From positions 1 to 37,125 of IMG/VR virus record IMGVR_UViG_3300033067_000034: a stretch of DNA of 37,125 nucleotides, one strand, 5' to 3'. Of this stretch, positions 368 to 36,532 are shown piece after piece. How positions within the stretch are numbered: position 1 is the stretch's first letter; the number at the start of each line of letters is the position of its first letter. The notes under the pieces were generated by a model. It was not told where the DNA came from and made no database searches. It worked only from the letters and a program-made list of their open reading frames with translations. The translations under genes were made by a program, and so were the position numbers. Source of the DNA: a virus. Taxonomy: Duplodnaviria > Caudoviricetes.

Positions 368-853
368 ATGAGTAATCGAAATTTCAACACTGTGACTGAT
401 GGTCACGATGAGTGGCTGACGCCAAAGTACATCACCGACACTCTTGGTCCTTTTGACCTTGACCCGTGCAGTCCTGGTACTCGTCGTCCTTGGGACACAG
501 CACAGTATCACCTTGACGAAACAGACAACGGGCTTGCTGCCCCTTGGTTCGGTACTGTCTGGTGCAATCCACCCTACGGTCGAGAAACATTCAAATGGCT
601 TGCCAAACTTGCGGACCATGGGAATGGTATTGCGTTGGTGTTCGCACGAACCGAAACAGTCGGGTTTTTTGAACAAGTTTGGGGACGGGCAGACGCTGTG
701 TTCTTTTTCAAAGGCCGATTGAGATTTTGTTATGTTGACGGTACTGAAGCAGATGTGGCCAACGCTCCGAGTTGCCTAATTGCTTACGGAAAATCGAATG
801 TTGAGAAGCTGCGCAATTCAGGGTTTGCTGGAAAGCTTGTGGTATTGAAATGA
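368..853 (+). CDS. Phage DNA N6-adenine methyltransferase (Dam-like family)
   Basis: DEWLTP, FDLDPC, DGL-type (DNGLAAPW) and catalytic WCNPPY motifs; ARTET…RLRF typical of phage N6-adenine MTases. Confidence 0.85.
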   Translation: MSNRNFNTVTDGHDEWLTPKYITDTLGPFDLDPCSPGTRRPWDTAQYHLDETDNGLAAPWFGTVWCNPPYGRETFKWLAKLADHGNGIALVFARTETVGFFEQVWGRADAVFFFKGRLRFCYVDGTEADVANAPSCLIAYGKSNVEKLRNSGFAGKLVVLK

Positions 854-2703
854 GTAACGACTATGTCTATGACCTGGAAACCTTCCCCAACGTCTTCACG
901 CTGGCGGTGGAGCACGCAGAAGCACCGCTTCGATGGTCTTTTGAGATCACACCCTGGCGCAACGACTCCAAAGAAATCATTGCGTTTCTCCAGTATCTCA
1001 AGGATACGGATGCCCGCATGGTCGGGTTCAATAACGTGGGGTTCGACTATCCCGTCTTGCATACGCTGATTCGCATGGGTTTCAGCGATGCCAACACGCT
1101 GTACCAAAAGGCGATGGCGATCATCAACTCACAGGATGACGACAGCAAGTGGATGCACAACGTCAACCCGAGTGACCGATTCGTGGAGCAGGTGGATCTG
1201 TTCAAGATTCACCACTTTGACAACAAGGCACGCGCCACCAGCCTCAAGATGCTGGAGTTCAATATGCGCTCGGACAACATCGAGGATCTGCCGTTCAAGG
1301 TGGGCACCGAATTGACCCGTGAGCAGGCCGAAGTGCTCAAGCGATACAACGCCCACGATGTGGCGCAGACCAAGTTGTTCCTTGGGCACACGACTGACAT
1401 GATCAAGTTCCGCGAGGAGCTGTGCCGCCTGTACCCCGGCAAGGACTGGATCAACTACAACGACACCAAGATCGGCAAAGAGTTTTTTGCCATGAAGCTC
1501 GAAGAAGCCGGTGTCACGCTGTACGACTTCGGCCCCAAAGGGCGCACCCCTCGCCAGACCCCACGCCCCCAGTTGGCGCTCAAGGACGCCATTCTGCCTT
1601 GGATCACGTTCGAGCAGCCCGAGTTCACACGAGTGCTGGGCTGGCTCAAGGACCAAGTGATAACTGAAACCAAAGGGGTTTTTGATGACGTTGTTGCTCG
1701 GGTCAATGGTTTCGATTTTGTTTTTGGGCTTGGCGGTATCCATGGATCAGTGGAGTCCGAGGTTATCGAATCTGATGCTGATCATGTCATCGTTGACTTG
1801 GACGTTAGCTCTTACTACCCAAATCTGGCAATCAGTAACCGGTTCCACCCTGCTCACTTAGGCGAGTCGTTCTGCGACATCTACAAGCACTTGTACGAGC
1901 AGCGCAAAACCTACGCCAAGAACAGCGCAGAGAACGCCATGCTGAAGCTGGCGCTCAACGGTGTGTACGGTGACAGCAACAACCCGTTCAGCGTGTTCTA
2001 CGACCCGCTGTTCACCATGAGCATCACGCTCAACGGGCAACTGCTGCTGTGCGTCTTGGCTGAAGGGATGATGCACATTGATGGGTTGAAGATCATCCAG
2101 GTGAACACGGACGGCATGACAGTACGAGTGCCCCGCGCCAACAAGTGGCTCGTGGACACGGCTCGTGCTGCGTGGGAGTCGCGCACAGGGTTGCAGCTTG
2201 AGGAAGCCATTTATTCGCACATGTTCATCCGTGATGTGAACAACTACATCGCACGGTACGAGAACGGCAAGGTCAAGCGCAAGGGTGCCTACGAGTACGA
2301 GATGCATTGGCACCAGAACGCCGGTGGACTGGTGATCCCCAAAGTGGCCGAGAAGGTGCTGATCGAGGGTGCACCGATCCGGCAGACCATTGAGCAGTGG
2401 CCCGACATCATGGACTTCATGTTGCGCACCAAGGTGCCGCGCTCTAGTTACTTGGCAATCGAGTGGCACGGCCAGCAGCCCCAGCAGTTGCAGAACACAA
2501 CACGCTACTACATTGCAGAGGGCGGTGGTCGCCTGTTCAAGTGGATGCCGCCGCTCAAGGGCAAGACCGAGTGGCGCAAGATCGGTGTCGAGTCGGGATG
2601 GGGTGTCCAGCCTTGCAATGACATCAAGGACGCCGGGAAGTTGCCGGTGGATTTTGATTACTACGTCAGAGAAGTGGAGAAGCTATGTCTGGGATTGGCA
2701 TGA
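850..2703 (+). CDS. Family B DNA polymerase with 3'-5' exonuclease
   Basis: ExoI YDLETF, ExoII GFNNVGFDY, ExoIII YNAHDV; motif A DLDVSSYYPN, motif B KLALNGVYG, motif C variant QVNTDG, then KRKG. Confidence 0.9.
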   Translation: MSNDYVYDLETFPNVFTLAVEHAEAPLRWSFEITPWRNDSKEIIAFLQYLKDTDARMVGFNNVGFDYPVLHTLIRMGFSDANTLYQKAMAIINSQDDDSKWMHNVNPSDRFVEQVDLFKIHHFDNKARATSLKMLEFNMRSDNIEDLPFKVGTELTREQAEVLKRYNAHDVAQTKLFLGHTTDMIKFREELCRLYPGKDWINYNDTKIGKEFFAMKLEEAGVTLYDFGPKGRTPRQTPRPQLALKDAILPWITFEQPEFTRVLGWLKDQVITETKGVFDDVVARVNGFDFVFGLGGIHGSVESEVIESDADHVIVDLDVSSYYPNLAISNRFHPAHLGESFCDIYKHLYEQRKTYAKNSAENAMLKLALNGVYGDSNNPFSVFYDPLFTMSITLNGQLLLCVLAEGMMHIDGLKIIQVNTDGMTVRVPRANKWLVDTARAAWESRTGLQLEEAIYSHMFIRDVNNYIARYENGKVKRKGAYEYEMHWHQNAGGLVIPKVAEKVLIEGAPIRQTIEQWPDIMDFMLRTKVPRSSYLAIEWHGQQPQQLQNTTRYYIAEGGGRLFKWMPPLKGKTEWRKIGVESGWGVQPCNDIKDAGKLPVDFDYYVREVEKLCLGLA

Positions 2704-3011
2704 AATTCGATAGTCGCAAGCCCCGTTGGAGCTTGCTGCCCAAAGGTGCAGTGTTGCAAATTATCGAAGTTCTGGAGTTTGGTGCTGCCAAGTACGCCGA
2801 GAACAACTGGCAGCATGTTGAGAATGGACGCCAGCGTTACTACGATGCCTTGATGCGTCACATGGAGGCATGGTGGCTTGGTGAAAAAACAGACCCTGAA
2901 AGTGGGCTGTCTCACTTGGCTCACGCTGGTTGCTGTCTTGTGTTTTTGCTCTGGTTGGATCGTGACATTGACAGCAAGAAACAAATGGACGAAAGGTGTG
3001 GTGATGATTGA
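2685..3011 (+). CDS. dATP/dGTP diphosphohydrolase N-terminal domain (DUF5664-like); start may be 2700
   Basis: GMKFDSRKPRWSLLP…VLEFGAAKYAENNW…YYDALMRH…DPESGLSHLAHA matches the family signature. Confidence 0.85.
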   Translation: MSGIGMKFDSRKPRWSLLPKGAVLQIIEVLEFGAAKYAENNWQHVENGRQRYYDALMRHMEAWWLGEKTDPESGLSHLAHAGCCLVFLLWLDRDIDSKKQMDERCGDD

Positions 3012-3300
3012 GAAACAAATCGAAGCCAAGGTCTGCGAATACGCCAAGACCAAAGGCGTGCTGGTCTACAAGTTCACCAGTCCCGCTCGTGCCGCTGTGC
3101 CTGATCGCCTGTTCATCTACAAGGGTCGCGTGTTCTTTATCGAGTTCAAGCGCGAGGGGCAAAAGCCCACGCCTGCACAAGAGCGTGAACACAACAGAAT
3201 GCGCCAGCACCAGATCAACGTGTTCGTGGTGGACAACGTGGAGCAAGGAAAGTCAACCATCAACCTCATGCTGCAAATGATCGAAGCGAGGTTGTGCTGA
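3004..3300 (+). CDS. VRR-NUC domain nuclease (resolvase-like)
   Basis: MIEKQIE…KFTSP…VPDRL…FIEFKREGQKPTPAQ (PD-(D/E)xK); ATG 3004 preferred over the longer track ORF. Confidence 0.85.
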   Translation: MIEKQIEAKVCEYAKTKGVLVYKFTSPARAAVPDRLFIYKGRVFFIEFKREGQKPTPAQEREHNRMRQHQINVFVVDNVEQGKSTINLMLQMIEARLC

Positions 3301-4028
3301 TGAGAGTCATTTCATGGTTTTCGTGTGGTGCCGCCAGTGCGGTAGCCACCATCCTCGCTGCCGTCAAGTACGGTGAGATTGAGGCTGTCTACTGCCGGGT
3401 GGTTGAGGAACACGAGGACAACCTTCGGTTCCTTGACGACTTCACTCGTGTGACAGGTATCCCCGTCAAGGTCATCATGGATGAACAACACGAGGGGTCA
3501 ATCTACAAGGTGTTTGCAAAGCGCGGGTTTATCAAGAATCAGTACGGCGCACCTTGCACCATGATTTTGAAGAAGGACATGCGTAAGTCGTACCAGCGTC
3601 CCGGCGACATTCAGGTGTTTGGTTACACCGCTGAAGAACAAGATCGCGCTGACCGATTCATCGACGGTAACAATGATGTCAGTGAGGACTTCATCTTGAT
3701 TGACAACAAAGTGAGCAAACAGGACTGCTACGCACACCTGACCCGACTGGGCCTGAAGTTGCCAACCATGTACCACCTCGGGTACTCCAACAACAACTGC
3801 ATTGGTTGCGTGAAGGGGGGGATGGGTTATTGGAACAAAATTCGCAAGGACTTTCCAGATCGCTTCGACAAGATGGCAAAAGTGGAAAGACTTATCGGCC
3901 ACGCTGTAAACAAGGACGAAAACGGCCCGGTGTACTTGGACGAATTAGCACCCACTCGTGGACGGTTCAAGGTAGACATGCCTGCCGATTGTGGATTTAC
4001 ATGCGAGGTGAACAATGCTGACACCTGA
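3300..4028 (+). CDS. PAPS/APS-reductase-like PP-loop (adenine nucleotide alpha-hydrolase) protein, Cys-rich
   Basis: N-terminal VISWFSCGAASAVA (PP-loop variant of SGGKDS), GAPCT…LKK, FGYTAEE, LPTMYHLGYSNNNCIGCVKGG, C-terminal CGFTC. Confidence 0.7.
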   Translation: MRVISWFSCGAASAVATILAAVKYGEIEAVYCRVVEEHEDNLRFLDDFTRVTGIPVKVIMDEQHEGSIYKVFAKRGFIKNQYGAPCTMILKKDMRKSYQRPGDIQVFGYTAEEQDRADRFIDGNNDVSEDFILIDNKVSKQDCYAHLTRLGLKLPTMYHLGYSNNNCIGCVKGGMGYWNKIRKDFPDRFDKMAKVERLIGHAVNKDENGPVYLDELAPTRGRFKVDMPADCGFTCEVNNADT

Positions 4029-5455: not shown

Positions 5456-5641
5456 ATGATTGAACAACTGAAAAAACTGTGGACCACACCAAGCGCGGAA
5501 GTGCTGGCGCTGCGGGAGCTGGAGGACGCCAAGCGCAAGCTGCTTGAGTCGCAAACAACACGCGAGTACGCTGACTCGATGGTCAAGTTCCGTGAGCAGC
5601 AGATCAAGCGACTGACCGCATATTTGAAGGGCATGGAATGA
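5456..5641 (+). CDS. Hypothetical coiled-coil protein
   Basis: AAGGAG RBS at 5442-5447; ATGA overlap with the next gene. Confidence 0.7.
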   Translation: MIEQLKKLWTTPSAEVLALRELEDAKRKLLESQTTREYADSMVKFREQQIKRLTAYLKGME

Positions 5642-5871
5642 AGATCGTTGTATATACAAAATCCAGCTGTCCCAACTGTGTCAGTGCCAAACAGCTGCTC
5701 AAGTCCAAGAACCTCGACTACAAAGAGATCAACTTGGACAACGAAGCCGAGCGTGCTGCGTTCACGGTCATGTTCCCCGATGTGCGCCAGATGCCTCAGA
5801 TCTTTATCGATGGTCAGCGAGTCGGTGGATTCGCTGGACTGCAAGCAGCATTGAGTCAGGTGGGTAAATGA
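5638..5871 (+). CDS. Glutaredoxin (Grx/NrdH-like)
   Basis: VYTKSSCPNCVSAK active site; RQMPQIFIDGQRVGGF glutaredoxin signature. Confidence 0.9.
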   Translation: MKIVVYTKSSCPNCVSAKQLLKSKNLDYKEINLDNEAERAAFTVMFPDVRQMPQIFIDGQRVGGFAGLQAALSQVGK

Positions 5872-34490: not shown

Positions 34491-34688
34491 ATGGCAACTC
34501 TTAAATCCAAATCAAAGTTTCTGACTGTACGGGTGTCCCCCGACAGTCACAAGAAATTTCACAGCAAGGTCAAGAATTTCGGGCAACCGTCTGAGATCTT
34601 GCGTGAAATCATCGAGGCGTTCATTGAAGACCGCCTTGTCATTCAACCCCCCGTAACTCGTAAAGAAAGTCTCTACCATGTCTCTTGA
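34491..34688 (+). CDS. Ribbon-helix-helix (Arc/CopG-like) regulator, 65 aa
   Basis: AGGA RBS; KFLTVRVS strand, helix A, GQPSEILREIIEAFIE helix B. Confidence 0.7.
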   Translation: MATLKSKSKFLTVRVSPDSHKKFHSKVKNFGQPSEILREIIEAFIEDRLVIQPPVTRKESLYHVS

Positions 34689-35100
34689 ATCCAAAATCGA
34701 AGCCCTGACCCAAGCCATTGTCGCCTTGACTAACAAGATCGAAGGCGTCAATGTACCAGTCTCTGCACCCGTTGCACCAGCACCTGCACCCGTGGTACAA
34801 GCTGCTCCCGTGGTTGTGTCTGTCGTTGACACCCCTGCGCCCGTGGTGACCGCCCCTGCGATGCCAGCGCCCCCTGCATTCGTGGCACCTGTTGCTGTTG
34901 CTGCCCCTGTGGCCACTGGTGCACCGTTCACCGACGGTAAGGGTCTGATCGACTACGTGATGGGTGCCTACAAGGCTCTCGGCCCGCAGAAAGGTGCTCA
35001 GATTCAGAACGTGCTGGTCGGTCTGGGTTACCAGAACATCAACGATGTCAAGCCTGAGCACTACGGCCAACTGTACGCTGGCGTTGAGGCACTCAAATGA
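34678..35100 (+). CDS. Hypothetical Pro/Ala-linker protein typical upstream of DUF2800
   Basis: MSLESKIEALTQAI…PA-rich linker…INDVKPEHYGQL. Confidence 0.75.
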   Translation: MSLESKIEALTQAIVALTNKIEGVNVPVSAPVAPAPAPVVQAAPVVVSVVDTPAPVVTAPAMPAPPAFVAPVAVAAPVATGAPFTDGKGLIDYVMGAYKALGPQKGAQIQNVLVGLGYQNINDVKPEHYGQLYAGVEALK

Positions 35101-35231
35101 GCACCGAGAACACGCAGCAACCCGAAGTCGAGCAGCAGCCTGCGCCAGCACCGGCTCAGGACGACAACGACTTCCCACTGGGTCAAGCCTGTGACCTGTC
35201 GGATGACGGCACCTGCGAGGCTTGCCAATGA
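35097..35231 (+). CDS. 44-aa acidic peptide ending CxxCQ, resembling an RNR alpha C-terminal tail (not in ORF track)
   Basis: MSTENTQQPEVEQQPAPAPAQDDNDFPLGQACDLSDDGTCEACQ; ATGA overlaps at both ends; GAGG RBS. Confidence 0.75.
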   Translation: MSTENTQQPEVEQQPAPAPAQDDNDFPLGQACDLSDDGTCEACQ

Positions 35232-36532
35232 GCACCCACGCCCAACTGTCGCCCTCCAAACGGCACCGCTGGGCCTTGTGCCCCGGCAGCATCCGTGAGG
35301 AGGCCAAGTACCCCGATGAACGCAGCGGTGCTGCCGCCATCGACGGAACCCACAGCCACACGCTGCTGGAGCACTGCATCAAAAATGGTGTTCAGGGTAG
35401 TGCTTCCACCATGATCGGCATCAAGATGAAGGACGACGATGGTGAGTTCGTCATCGACGCAGATCGTGCATCACGAGTTGATGTCGCTCTCGATTACATT
35501 CGTGAGCGGTCCATGAACGGCATGTTCAAGGTGATCTCCGAGCAGCGCGTTGACCCCCAGCACCTGCTGGGTCGTGACGATCTCAGCGGTACCGTGGACT
35601 GCCAGATCATCGGCCCTGACTGGATCGAGATCATCGACTACAAGGACGGCATGGGCGTGGTGAGCGCCGAGGGCAACATGCAGCTTGAGCAGTACGCCTA
35701 CGGGGTGCTGGCAGGCTACAAGCTGCCCATCAACGTCGAGTATCCGGTCAAGCGGATCATCATGACCATCATTCAGCCCAAGCTGGCGCTGCGCGGGATG
35801 CCTGCAATCACATCGCACGATGTGGCTGTAAGCGAACTGTTAGCTGGTATGGGTACAATCGTGGCTCAAGCTGCTGCAACTGACAAACCAGATGCACCAC
35901 TTGTACCGGGTGACAGTCAATGTAAATTCTGCCGCGCCAAGGGCTCCTGCTCTGCACTGGCAAACAACGTAATGAAAGAGGTCGGAATCATGTTCCAACC
36001 AGTCGTAACACAACCACTCGATGTCGCACAGCAAAGTGCCGACAAAGATCCATCCACGATGGACGATGCCCAGATCGCTCAGATCATGGAAGCTGCTCCC
36101 CTGATGCGCCAACTCCTCGAAGGTGTTGAAGCCGAAGCGCTGCGCCGTATGCAGGCTGGCCAAACCATCCCCGGCCTCAAGCTGGTCAATGGTCGTGGCT
36201 CCCGTGCATGGGCACTGCCCGAAGCCGAGATCGCCGAGAAGCTGGTCAAGATGGGCATCCCCAAAGGCTCTGTCTACGAGACTAAGCTGGTGTCCCCTGC
36301 CAAAGCTGAGAAGCTGACCTGGACTAAGAAGGACGGCACAGCCAAGCAGCTGTCCGAGCGCCAGCTCAAAACTCTCGACCAAGAGTACGTGGTCAAGATG
36401 GCCGGCAAGCTCACCGTCGTCCCTGAATCTGACAGCCGTCCTGCTGTCATCACCAATGCTGCGCCGCTGTTCAGCGCAGTAGAGGCAGCACCCGCTGCCG
36501 AATCCCTGCCCTCGTGGCTCATGGGAGCGTGA
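35228..36532 (+). CDS. DUF2800-like PD-(D/E)xK (Cas4-like) exonuclease
   Basis: HAQLSPSKRHRWALCPGS, GTHSH, GTVDC, IIDYKDG, QLEQYA, CKFCRAKGSC, GLKLVNGRGSRAW. Confidence 0.85.
   Translation: MSTHAQLSPSKRHRWALCPGSIREEAKYPDERSGAAAIDGTHSHTLLEHCIKNGVQGSASTMIGIKMKDDDGEFVIDADRASRVDVALDYIRERSMNGMFKVISEQRVDPQHLLGRDDLSGTVDCQIIGPDWIEIIDYKDGMGVVSAEGNMQLEQYAYGVLAGYKLPINVEYPVKRIIMTIIQPKLALRGMPAITSHDVAVSELLAGMGTIVAQAAATDKPDAPLVPGDSQCKFCRAKGSCSALANNVMKEVGIMFQPVVTQPLDVAQQSADKDPSTMDDAQIAQIMEAAPLMRQLLEGVEAEALRRMQAGQTIPGLKLVNGRGSRAWALPEAEIAEKLVKMGIPKGSVYETKLVSPAKAEKLTWTKKDGTAKQLSERQLKTLDQEYVVKMAGKLTVVPESDSRPAVITNAAPLFSAVEAAPAAESLPSWLMGA

Follow-up and report, generated by a model that had tools for sequence, protein, structure and literature searches.

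The window, that is, the whole stretch of DNA analysed here, is a virus record of 37,125 bp with a CheckV completeness of 98%. Since an SSB gene is continuous across both record ends, the genome is taken to be circularly permuted and essentially whole. Pfam matches identified P22-like portal, coat and tail genes, a primase-helicase, an SNF2 helicase, a DUF2800 exonuclease and a glutaredoxin. Between 368-4028, Dam methylase, dATP/dGTP diphosphohydrolase-like and PAPS-reductase-like genes are grouped around a polymerase-like ORF, a gene set that suggests DNA or nucleotide modification. The features of the locus under study, with the glutaredoxin gene added, are as follows.

34678..35100, plus strand: upstream core gene of 140 aa, left border of an accessory slot
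35086..35105, plus strand: imperfect direct repeat of 20 nt, copy 1 (GAGG and start context), at the 5' junction
35097..35231, plus strand: 44-aa gene, a variable linker plus an NrdA-tail-like module, phrog_9555-like (homologs, codon adaptation, profile match)
35097..35159, plus strand: linker, residues 1-21, Q/P/A/E-rich, variable and predicted to be disordered; relatives carry other domains instead
35160..35186, plus strand: acid-plus-aromatic motif DDNDFPLGQ, residues 22-30, typical of the phage module and rare in NrdA tails; putative docking element
35187..35228, plus strand: AC-x7-CEACQ, residues 31-44, with a free C-terminus; matches class Ia NrdA ends
35190-92, plus strand: Cys32
35214-25, plus strand: Cys40/Cys43 pair
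35217..35236, plus strand: repeat copy 2, 80% identical, with GAGG and the start of the DUF2800 gene
35228..36532, plus strand: DUF2800 / PD-(D/E)XK exonuclease gene, right border of the accessory slot
5638-5871: glutaredoxin gene with a CPNC motif, in a phage lacking ribonucleotide reductase (RNR)

The 44-codon ORF fills the gap between its neighbours with ATGA overlaps at both ends, and in this respect, as in its translation, it is as an earlier note on this DNA had described. Its ATG (35097-99) lies over the upstream stop (35098-35100), its stop (35229-31) lies over the ATG of the DUF2800 gene (35228-30), and GAGG precedes the start by 7 nt; a promoter scan gave one site versus 0.5 expected. 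The same note had placed the ORF between two replication genes, which stands for the DUF2800 gene downstream but not for the 140-aa gene upstream, which is not recognisable as such: it has no Pfam match, and its sole PHROG match is a family of unknown function. Nor was the ORF wholly uncalled, as had been stated. It is present letter for letter in the ESM Atlas, where only unnamed clusters were found at 0.88-0.90, and its residues 19-44 match positions 29-53 of the phrog_9555 profile (E 2.9e-4).

Judged from its sequence, the 44-codon ORF is a real and conserved gene, and is presumably translated. Its codon adaptation is 0.83 versus 0.51-0.73 in the five other frames, 14 other genes of the genome ranging from 0.61 to 0.83 (13 of these 14 served as the reference). 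Across 38 distinct related tails, third codon positions hold 347 of the 509 base differences, and the 17 invariant columns of 15 near-length homologs are all within residues 22-44. A second run of the same study yielded a contig that covers the whole ORF and differs from it at 0 positions. A profile of the module retrieved 181 clusters at 50% identity, their N-termini being very diverse, and relatives occur in cultured phages (Acidovorax, Variovorax and 41 Pseudomonas phage records). A contig from an RNA library of a different study (X17, covering 35098-35383; 8 differences, 3 gap letters) was considered as proof of expression and set aside, since contigs cannot show transcription. For the peptide alone, structure prediction returned a pLDDT of 55.8 and a pTM of 0.13, so that it is predicted to be disordered; the variable residues 1-21 fit the disordered Q/P/A/E linker recognised earlier. 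PDB sequence searches with the peptide and with the phage-module profile gave 0 matches.

The terminal module and the ends of NrdA

The last 23 residues form a portable module that ends in C-x7-CEACQ-stop. Three cysteines are kept in 272 of the 273 stored module proteins, and in 267 of the 273 the module ends one residue past the last Cys, which bears out the cysteine conservation that the earlier note had proposed to check. For comparison, CxxC is reported in 1737 of 2022 class I RNR sequences (PMC9531940).

Bacterial genomes were reached through the assemblies carrying the module. Of 251 Burkholderiales genomes, 217 contained the pattern CE-x-CQ-stop, usually a single time, against 16 matches for a reversed-pattern control (hand count). 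Thirty Burkholderiales loci listed with this ending comprised 27 NrdA ends, one Tad2-tail fusion and two that were neither, and among these loci a CEACQ-type ending thus belongs almost only to NrdA. Of the long ORFs ending in C[ED]xCQ-stop in bacterial loci, 44 of 45 were NrdA, with a spacing of C-x6 or C-x11; the exact AC-x7-CEACQ end was found in NrdA of 3 of 301 Pseudomonadota genomes. The likeness to proteobacterial NrdA ends that the earlier note had drawn is upheld by these counts. A profile built from NrdA tails matched PDB entry 5im3 (E 3e-5), which we take to be the Pseudomonas aeruginosa enzyme, and weakly yeast Rnr1 (E 2.7-2.8). Aligned with hhalign, the phage module and the NrdA-tail profile scored 95.6% over 16 columns, but this match, like the ranking of NrdA ends, is partly circular because both sets share the CE[AS]CQ used in their selection, and both results are given little weight here. 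With a free relative as tblastn query, two of three matches were annotated nrdA (E 0.3), and a 26-aa free relative gave one chance match by tblastn in cultured phages. H42 was rejected as a relative of the module, the motif being absent.

The stretch before the first Cys separates the phage modules from NrdA tails. Among the matches listed, an acid-plus-F/W motif is present there in 137 of 171 phage modules versus 3 of 78 NrdA tails, counts from which 16 loci judged by eye to be chance or doubtful, together with every ORF no longer than 30 aa, were left out. The motif resembles the NrdB ends of E. coli and some viruses, not the Burkholderiales NrdB end.

Close relatives are located in Limnohabitans and Acidovorax assemblies, where NrdA ends in CEACQ, and the host is presumably a member of the Burkholderiales. 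In an Aquiluna MAG, one of the three bacterial assemblies with the module, no CEACQ-ended RNR was seen among the ends read; mis-binning may have occurred. One Limnohabitans assembly (G001) encodes an NrdA tail with Thr in place of the first of the three Cys (L067), and the same assembly holds a Tad2-tail fusion. In seven of the 251 Burkholderiales genomes the final ~30 nt of nrdA recur in degenerate form 93-186 bp further downstream (L106-L112, e.g. L110:3442-3544), perhaps as a small repeat element or as a structure with a regulatory role in the nrdA-nrdB interval. Second CE-x-CQ matches behind nrdA were rejected as chromosomal spare tails, being degenerate repeat- or hairpin-rich DNA without a proper ORF.

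Fusion partners, genomic neighbours and related detached tails

Longer relatives were surveyed as the best 120 of 206 matches, all of at least 131 aa. The module stands at the end of 118 of these 120, and 108 (hand count) carry an anti-signalling domain: Acb4 (PF13876) in 54, Tad2-like in 19, Sequestin (PF21825) in 18, RyR in 17 and Tad3 in one, with one Sequestin fusion also containing Tad2. The assignment of PF13876 to Acb4 and of PF21825 to Sequestin follows a published study (10.1101/2025.07.12.664507). The fusion, within this subfamily, of the module to members of five anti-signalling families (Acb4, Tad2, Sequestin, RyR-Tad and Tad3) is new. When no length filter was applied, 28 of 150 clusters had a Pfam match, 26 of the 28 to anti-signalling families, and 122 of the 150 were without a Pfam domain. 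Among 50 distinct close-family ORFs from IMG/VR, 24 are fused to an anti-signalling gene, in six such a gene lies within 2 kb and the remaining 20 are without; far-off segments of these contigs, taken as control, gave 0 of 54, a comparison in which the loci are not independent lineages and the control is not matched for accessory hot spots. In the window analysed here, no match to anti-signalling reference proteins was found. The earlier note had described a single free peptide; beyond that, the module is portable, is fused to or lies beside anti-signalling proteins in this subfamily, and carries the acid-plus-aromatic motif.

In a modelled Acb4 fusion the tail had a pLDDT of 45-54 versus 87-95 elsewhere, as expected of an independent appendage, and fusion to the tail was seen at only 2 of 80 Acb4 loci. 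One Tad2 fusion (P0018) contains DDNDFPLG twice, once before the Tad2 domain without the cysteine part, which suggests that Tad2 was inserted into a free tail gene.

The position of the gene was compared in 80 relatives found through DUF2800, in 77 of which the slot between the 140-aa gene and the DUF2800 gene (the 34678-35231 junction; L520-L597) could be measured. Counted by hand, 33 relatives had one or more genes in the slot and 44 had none. The known anti-defence genes among the fillers numbered 6 of 33, namely three Tad2-like genes (two of them scanned), two Acb2/Tad1 genes and one Tad3-tail fusion; most fillers have no known function. The tail itself is present in only 2 of the 80 close phage relatives.

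Co-occurrence with RNR was assessed in 50 larger-contig records out of 65 module-bearing virus records. NrdA was found in none of the 50, including 0 of 36 at 90% completeness or above, and NrdB in one (L600 of G303, 57% complete), which had no NrdA match. The absence of RNR from the present phage, claimed previously, was confirmed: its genome has no match to PF02867 in a search whose control was positive in 12 of 14 genomes and no NrdA or NrdB match by tblastn under E 0.7, and no remnant of nrdA was found in the window. As specific evidence this absence is weakened, however, by the relatives of the phage that are tail-less, RNR being found in 0 of 18. The phage glutaredoxin had also been proposed as the partner of the tail, and this did not hold up. 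Glutaredoxin occurs in one of the 50 module-bearing records, and of 80 relative loci 14 have a glutaredoxin match, at different positions, none of the 14 with the tail; glutaredoxin assorts independently of the tail and is no obligate partner.

Detached tails form a wider family. Four IMG/VR pattern scans gave at least 394 matches, seven of them with an internal stop, and among the matches listed at least 310 distinct ORFs comprised 48 NrdA, 152 short (110 aa or less from stop to stop), 73 longer and 37 open-ended ones. Some short viral ORFs are near-copies of NrdA ends, and the free peptides grade into such copies. The E. coli-type end (C-x4-C) is free-standing in 5 of 40 distinct viral ORFs (L694, L706, L723, L688 and L746), in 0 of 5 cases in a record with PF02867; the records of L694, L706 and L723 are 265-268 kb long and 100% complete. 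Such tails occur in addition to those of the CEACQ type, so that two different NrdA tail types are found detached, and fusion to sponges or proximity to them was seen in 0 of 5 of the E. coli type. Nucleotide metabolism is represented repeatedly among partners and neighbours. MazG-like pyrophosphatases with an NrdA-like tail end form a large subfamily (L282, L313, L325 and ~40 similar loci), in which a dCMP deaminase lies within 2 kb of the module in 36 loci; a thymidylate-synthase-like enzyme of ~440 aa has the tail at its C-terminus (L199:3004-4335, minus strand), and in phage ACPWH ThyX is directly 3' of the module gene. Free tail peptides of 26-60 aa are often near terminase-like genes (L401-L519 group, e.g. 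L458:2528-2767), and 12 loci of this group have a 4Fe-4S ferredoxin gene within 1 kb.

A possible trans-acting tail and its alternatives

Yeast Rnr1 is said to perform re-reduction in trans. The native tail of the RNR alpha subunit is described as re-reducing the active-site disulfide and as being reduced in turn by thioredoxin (PMC11903788). Taken together, the NrdA-like tail and its fusions to immune-signal blockers indicate that the peptide likely acts on the host enzyme, protecting the supply of DNA precursors. The best reading, to which we assign a probability of roughly 0.45, is that the 44-aa gene encodes a trans-acting mimic of the NrdA tail that keeps host RNR turning over, probably as a counter-defence. 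The detached tail would likely enter the active site of host NrdA in trans, perhaps docking through the acid-plus-aromatic motif, and the terminal CxxC, re-reduced by host redoxins, would likely sustain dNTP synthesis. The net effect would be stimulatory or protective, either by adding re-reduction capacity or by providing a stand-in or decoy when the host tail is blocked, and a link to nucleotide-level immunity may exist. Against this reading stand the 122 of 150 clusters without a Pfam domain, as well as the 20 of 50 close-family loci and the present window, which are without an anti-signalling gene. Moreover, the gain from a free tail is not obvious because host NrdA already has a tethered one, and a free tail could even inhibit, given that the alpha tail and the substrate are reported to compete for one pocket in a mutually exclusive manner (PMC11903788). 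It is doubtful whether the module can be generalised to a widespread, portable anti-defence module, which would imply an undescribed immune step attacking or guarding the recharging of RNR, at the tail or at its redoxin; no less tentative is the corollary that RNR-less phages neutralise such a step with the detached tail, alone or fused to a sponge.

If the sponge fusions merely reflected shared hot spots, with any upstream gene serving as a linker, the peptide could be a plain metabolic booster of host RNR with no immune role. The very diverse N-termini of the 181 clusters (50% identity), the large proportion without Pfam domains (122/150), the large subfamilies fused to MazG or adjoining dCMP deaminase or terminase genes and the small share of known anti-defence genes in the slot of relatives (6/33) would all fit. 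We nevertheless consider it rather unlikely, as 26 of the 28 recognisable partners in this subfamily are anti-signalling proteins, from five Pfam families, and as a new anti-defence family has already been predicted from its fusion to sponges (10.1101/2025.07.12.664507). NrdA might also be left untouched by an optimised thioredoxin or glutaredoxin substrate that sequesters host redoxins or recruits them for defence or for the fused partner. The NrdA tail is a natural thioredoxin substrate, and an aromatic residue of the B. subtilis alpha subunit is described as docking in the TrxA pocket (PMC11903788), which could explain the phage acid-plus-aromatic motif; a TrxA-dependent nuclease, Cas12p, has been reported (PMC13728456), most fusion partners are decoy-type sponges, and in another subfamily a ferredoxin gene is within 2 kb in 12 loci. 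Such a bait, however, would not obviously need an exact NrdA end at the very C-terminus (267/273) or two different NrdA tail types, and among the papers listed for TrxA-requiring anti-phage systems none names such a decoy in its title or the opening of its abstract, so that this explanation is judged unlikely.

The opposite effect on the host enzyme, namely a damper in which the acid-plus-aromatic part imitates the docking tail of the beta subunit, the Cys end plugs the active site and the lowered dNTPs evade dNTP-sensing immunity, is quite unlikely. Peptides of the beta tail do inhibit RNR (PMC9221315), the E. coli NrdB end is an acidic F-x-L, one viral NrdB end resembles the start of one free peptide, phage-raised dNTPs are reported to trigger Clover and DRT4, and the mutually exclusive binding of tail and substrate (PMC11903788) would suit a plug. 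But phages with the module are without RNR and would be expected to depend on that of the host, the inhibitory peptides are described as needing a terminal carboxylate (PMC9221315) whereas the phage motif sits inside the chain, at residues 22-28 of 44, and Burkholderiales NrdB ends in GGAL-S/N-W-D/E rather than D-F-P-L; mimicry of the beta tail of the likely host was rejected for this poor match. Binding of a metal or Fe-S cluster by the three Cys and the acids, the likeness to NrdA being incidental, would agree with the retention of three Cys in 272 of 273 proteins and with the 12 ferredoxin neighbours. It appears improbable in view of the loss of the first Cys with CxxC kept in one Acb4 fusion (L664) and in one NrdA, the lack of a predicted metal-binding fold (pLDDT 55.8) and the copying of two distinct NrdA tail types. 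If the gene were a remnant without function, left by a lost phage nrdA or by a sponge fusion, its presence in only 2 of 80 close relatives would be accounted for, yet this is highly improbable considering the third-position bias, the high codon adaptation, the 181 clusters and a window free of nrdA remnants.

Comparison with known systems places the peptide close to the alpha tail of class Ia RNR (Burkholderiales NrdA; PDB 5im3 chain A; yeast Rnr1, PDB 1zyz), with which it shares a linker, predicted here to be disordered, C-x6/7-CxxC and, for NrdA, the CE[AS]CQ end with its Cys pair at the extreme C-terminus. By sequence it is like such a tail without being one, as it has no barrel and its redox activity is putative; it differs in being detached from the catalytic barrel and portable onto unrelated proteins, and in the added acid-plus-aromatic motif. 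With Acb4 (PF13876), Tad2 (PF11195), Sequestin (PF21825), RyR-Tad (PF02026), Tad3 (PF25185) and Acb2/Tad1 (PF24729) it has in common a small, modular build, occurrence alone or fused, and the same accessory slots, but it has no folded domain or Pfam match and mimics the end of a host protein. The fusions and neighbourhood by which anti-defence modules have been recognised (10.1101/2025.07.12.664507) are seen for the tail, their folds are not, and the E. coli-type tails lack even the former. The same terminal module is found in phrog_9555, a 53-aa hypothetical protein of Bruynoghevirus such as PaP4 (gp35), with a Cys spacing of 6 instead of 7 and an unrelated N-terminus. Inhibitors derived from the RNR beta tail (P7, HSV R2 nonapeptide) are likewise short acidic/aromatic peptides, described as binding alpha (PMC9221315), although they end in their motif and are without a Cys pair, while the phage motif is internal. 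Cyanophage CP12 is likewise a small phage protein that is redox-sensitive and mimics a regulator of host metabolism, but it represents an entire family of host proteins with the Calvin cycle as target, whereas the phage tail is an enzyme fragment (10.64898/2026.09.10.750766). No description of a free RNR-tail peptide was found in the literature searched, outside which lay subscription papers and supplements; the supplementary tables of the sponge papers, among the latter, may list tail-bearing fusions.

Phages raise the dNTP supply by bringing their own RNR. If the trans-acting reading is true, a detached tail of 14-25 residues would be a far cheaper way of steering the host enzyme. Since viral loci with the tail number in the hundreds, some of them in cultured phages of Pseudomonas, Acidovorax and Variovorax, direct tests are feasible. 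That five anti-signalling families carry it as a fusion points towards a step of defence in which RNR re-reduction or thioredoxin is central. Enzymologists would gain in the tail a natural tool to ask whether, in bacterial class I RNR, re-reduction is possible in trans. The accessory slot also holds other genes: phrog_2201, with the motif LRDYFAAKAM, is a recurrent filler, and further ones are DUF7303-like genes, a VG64 lipoprotein and unknown genes of 50-80 aa, all of these being candidate anti-defence genes by position.
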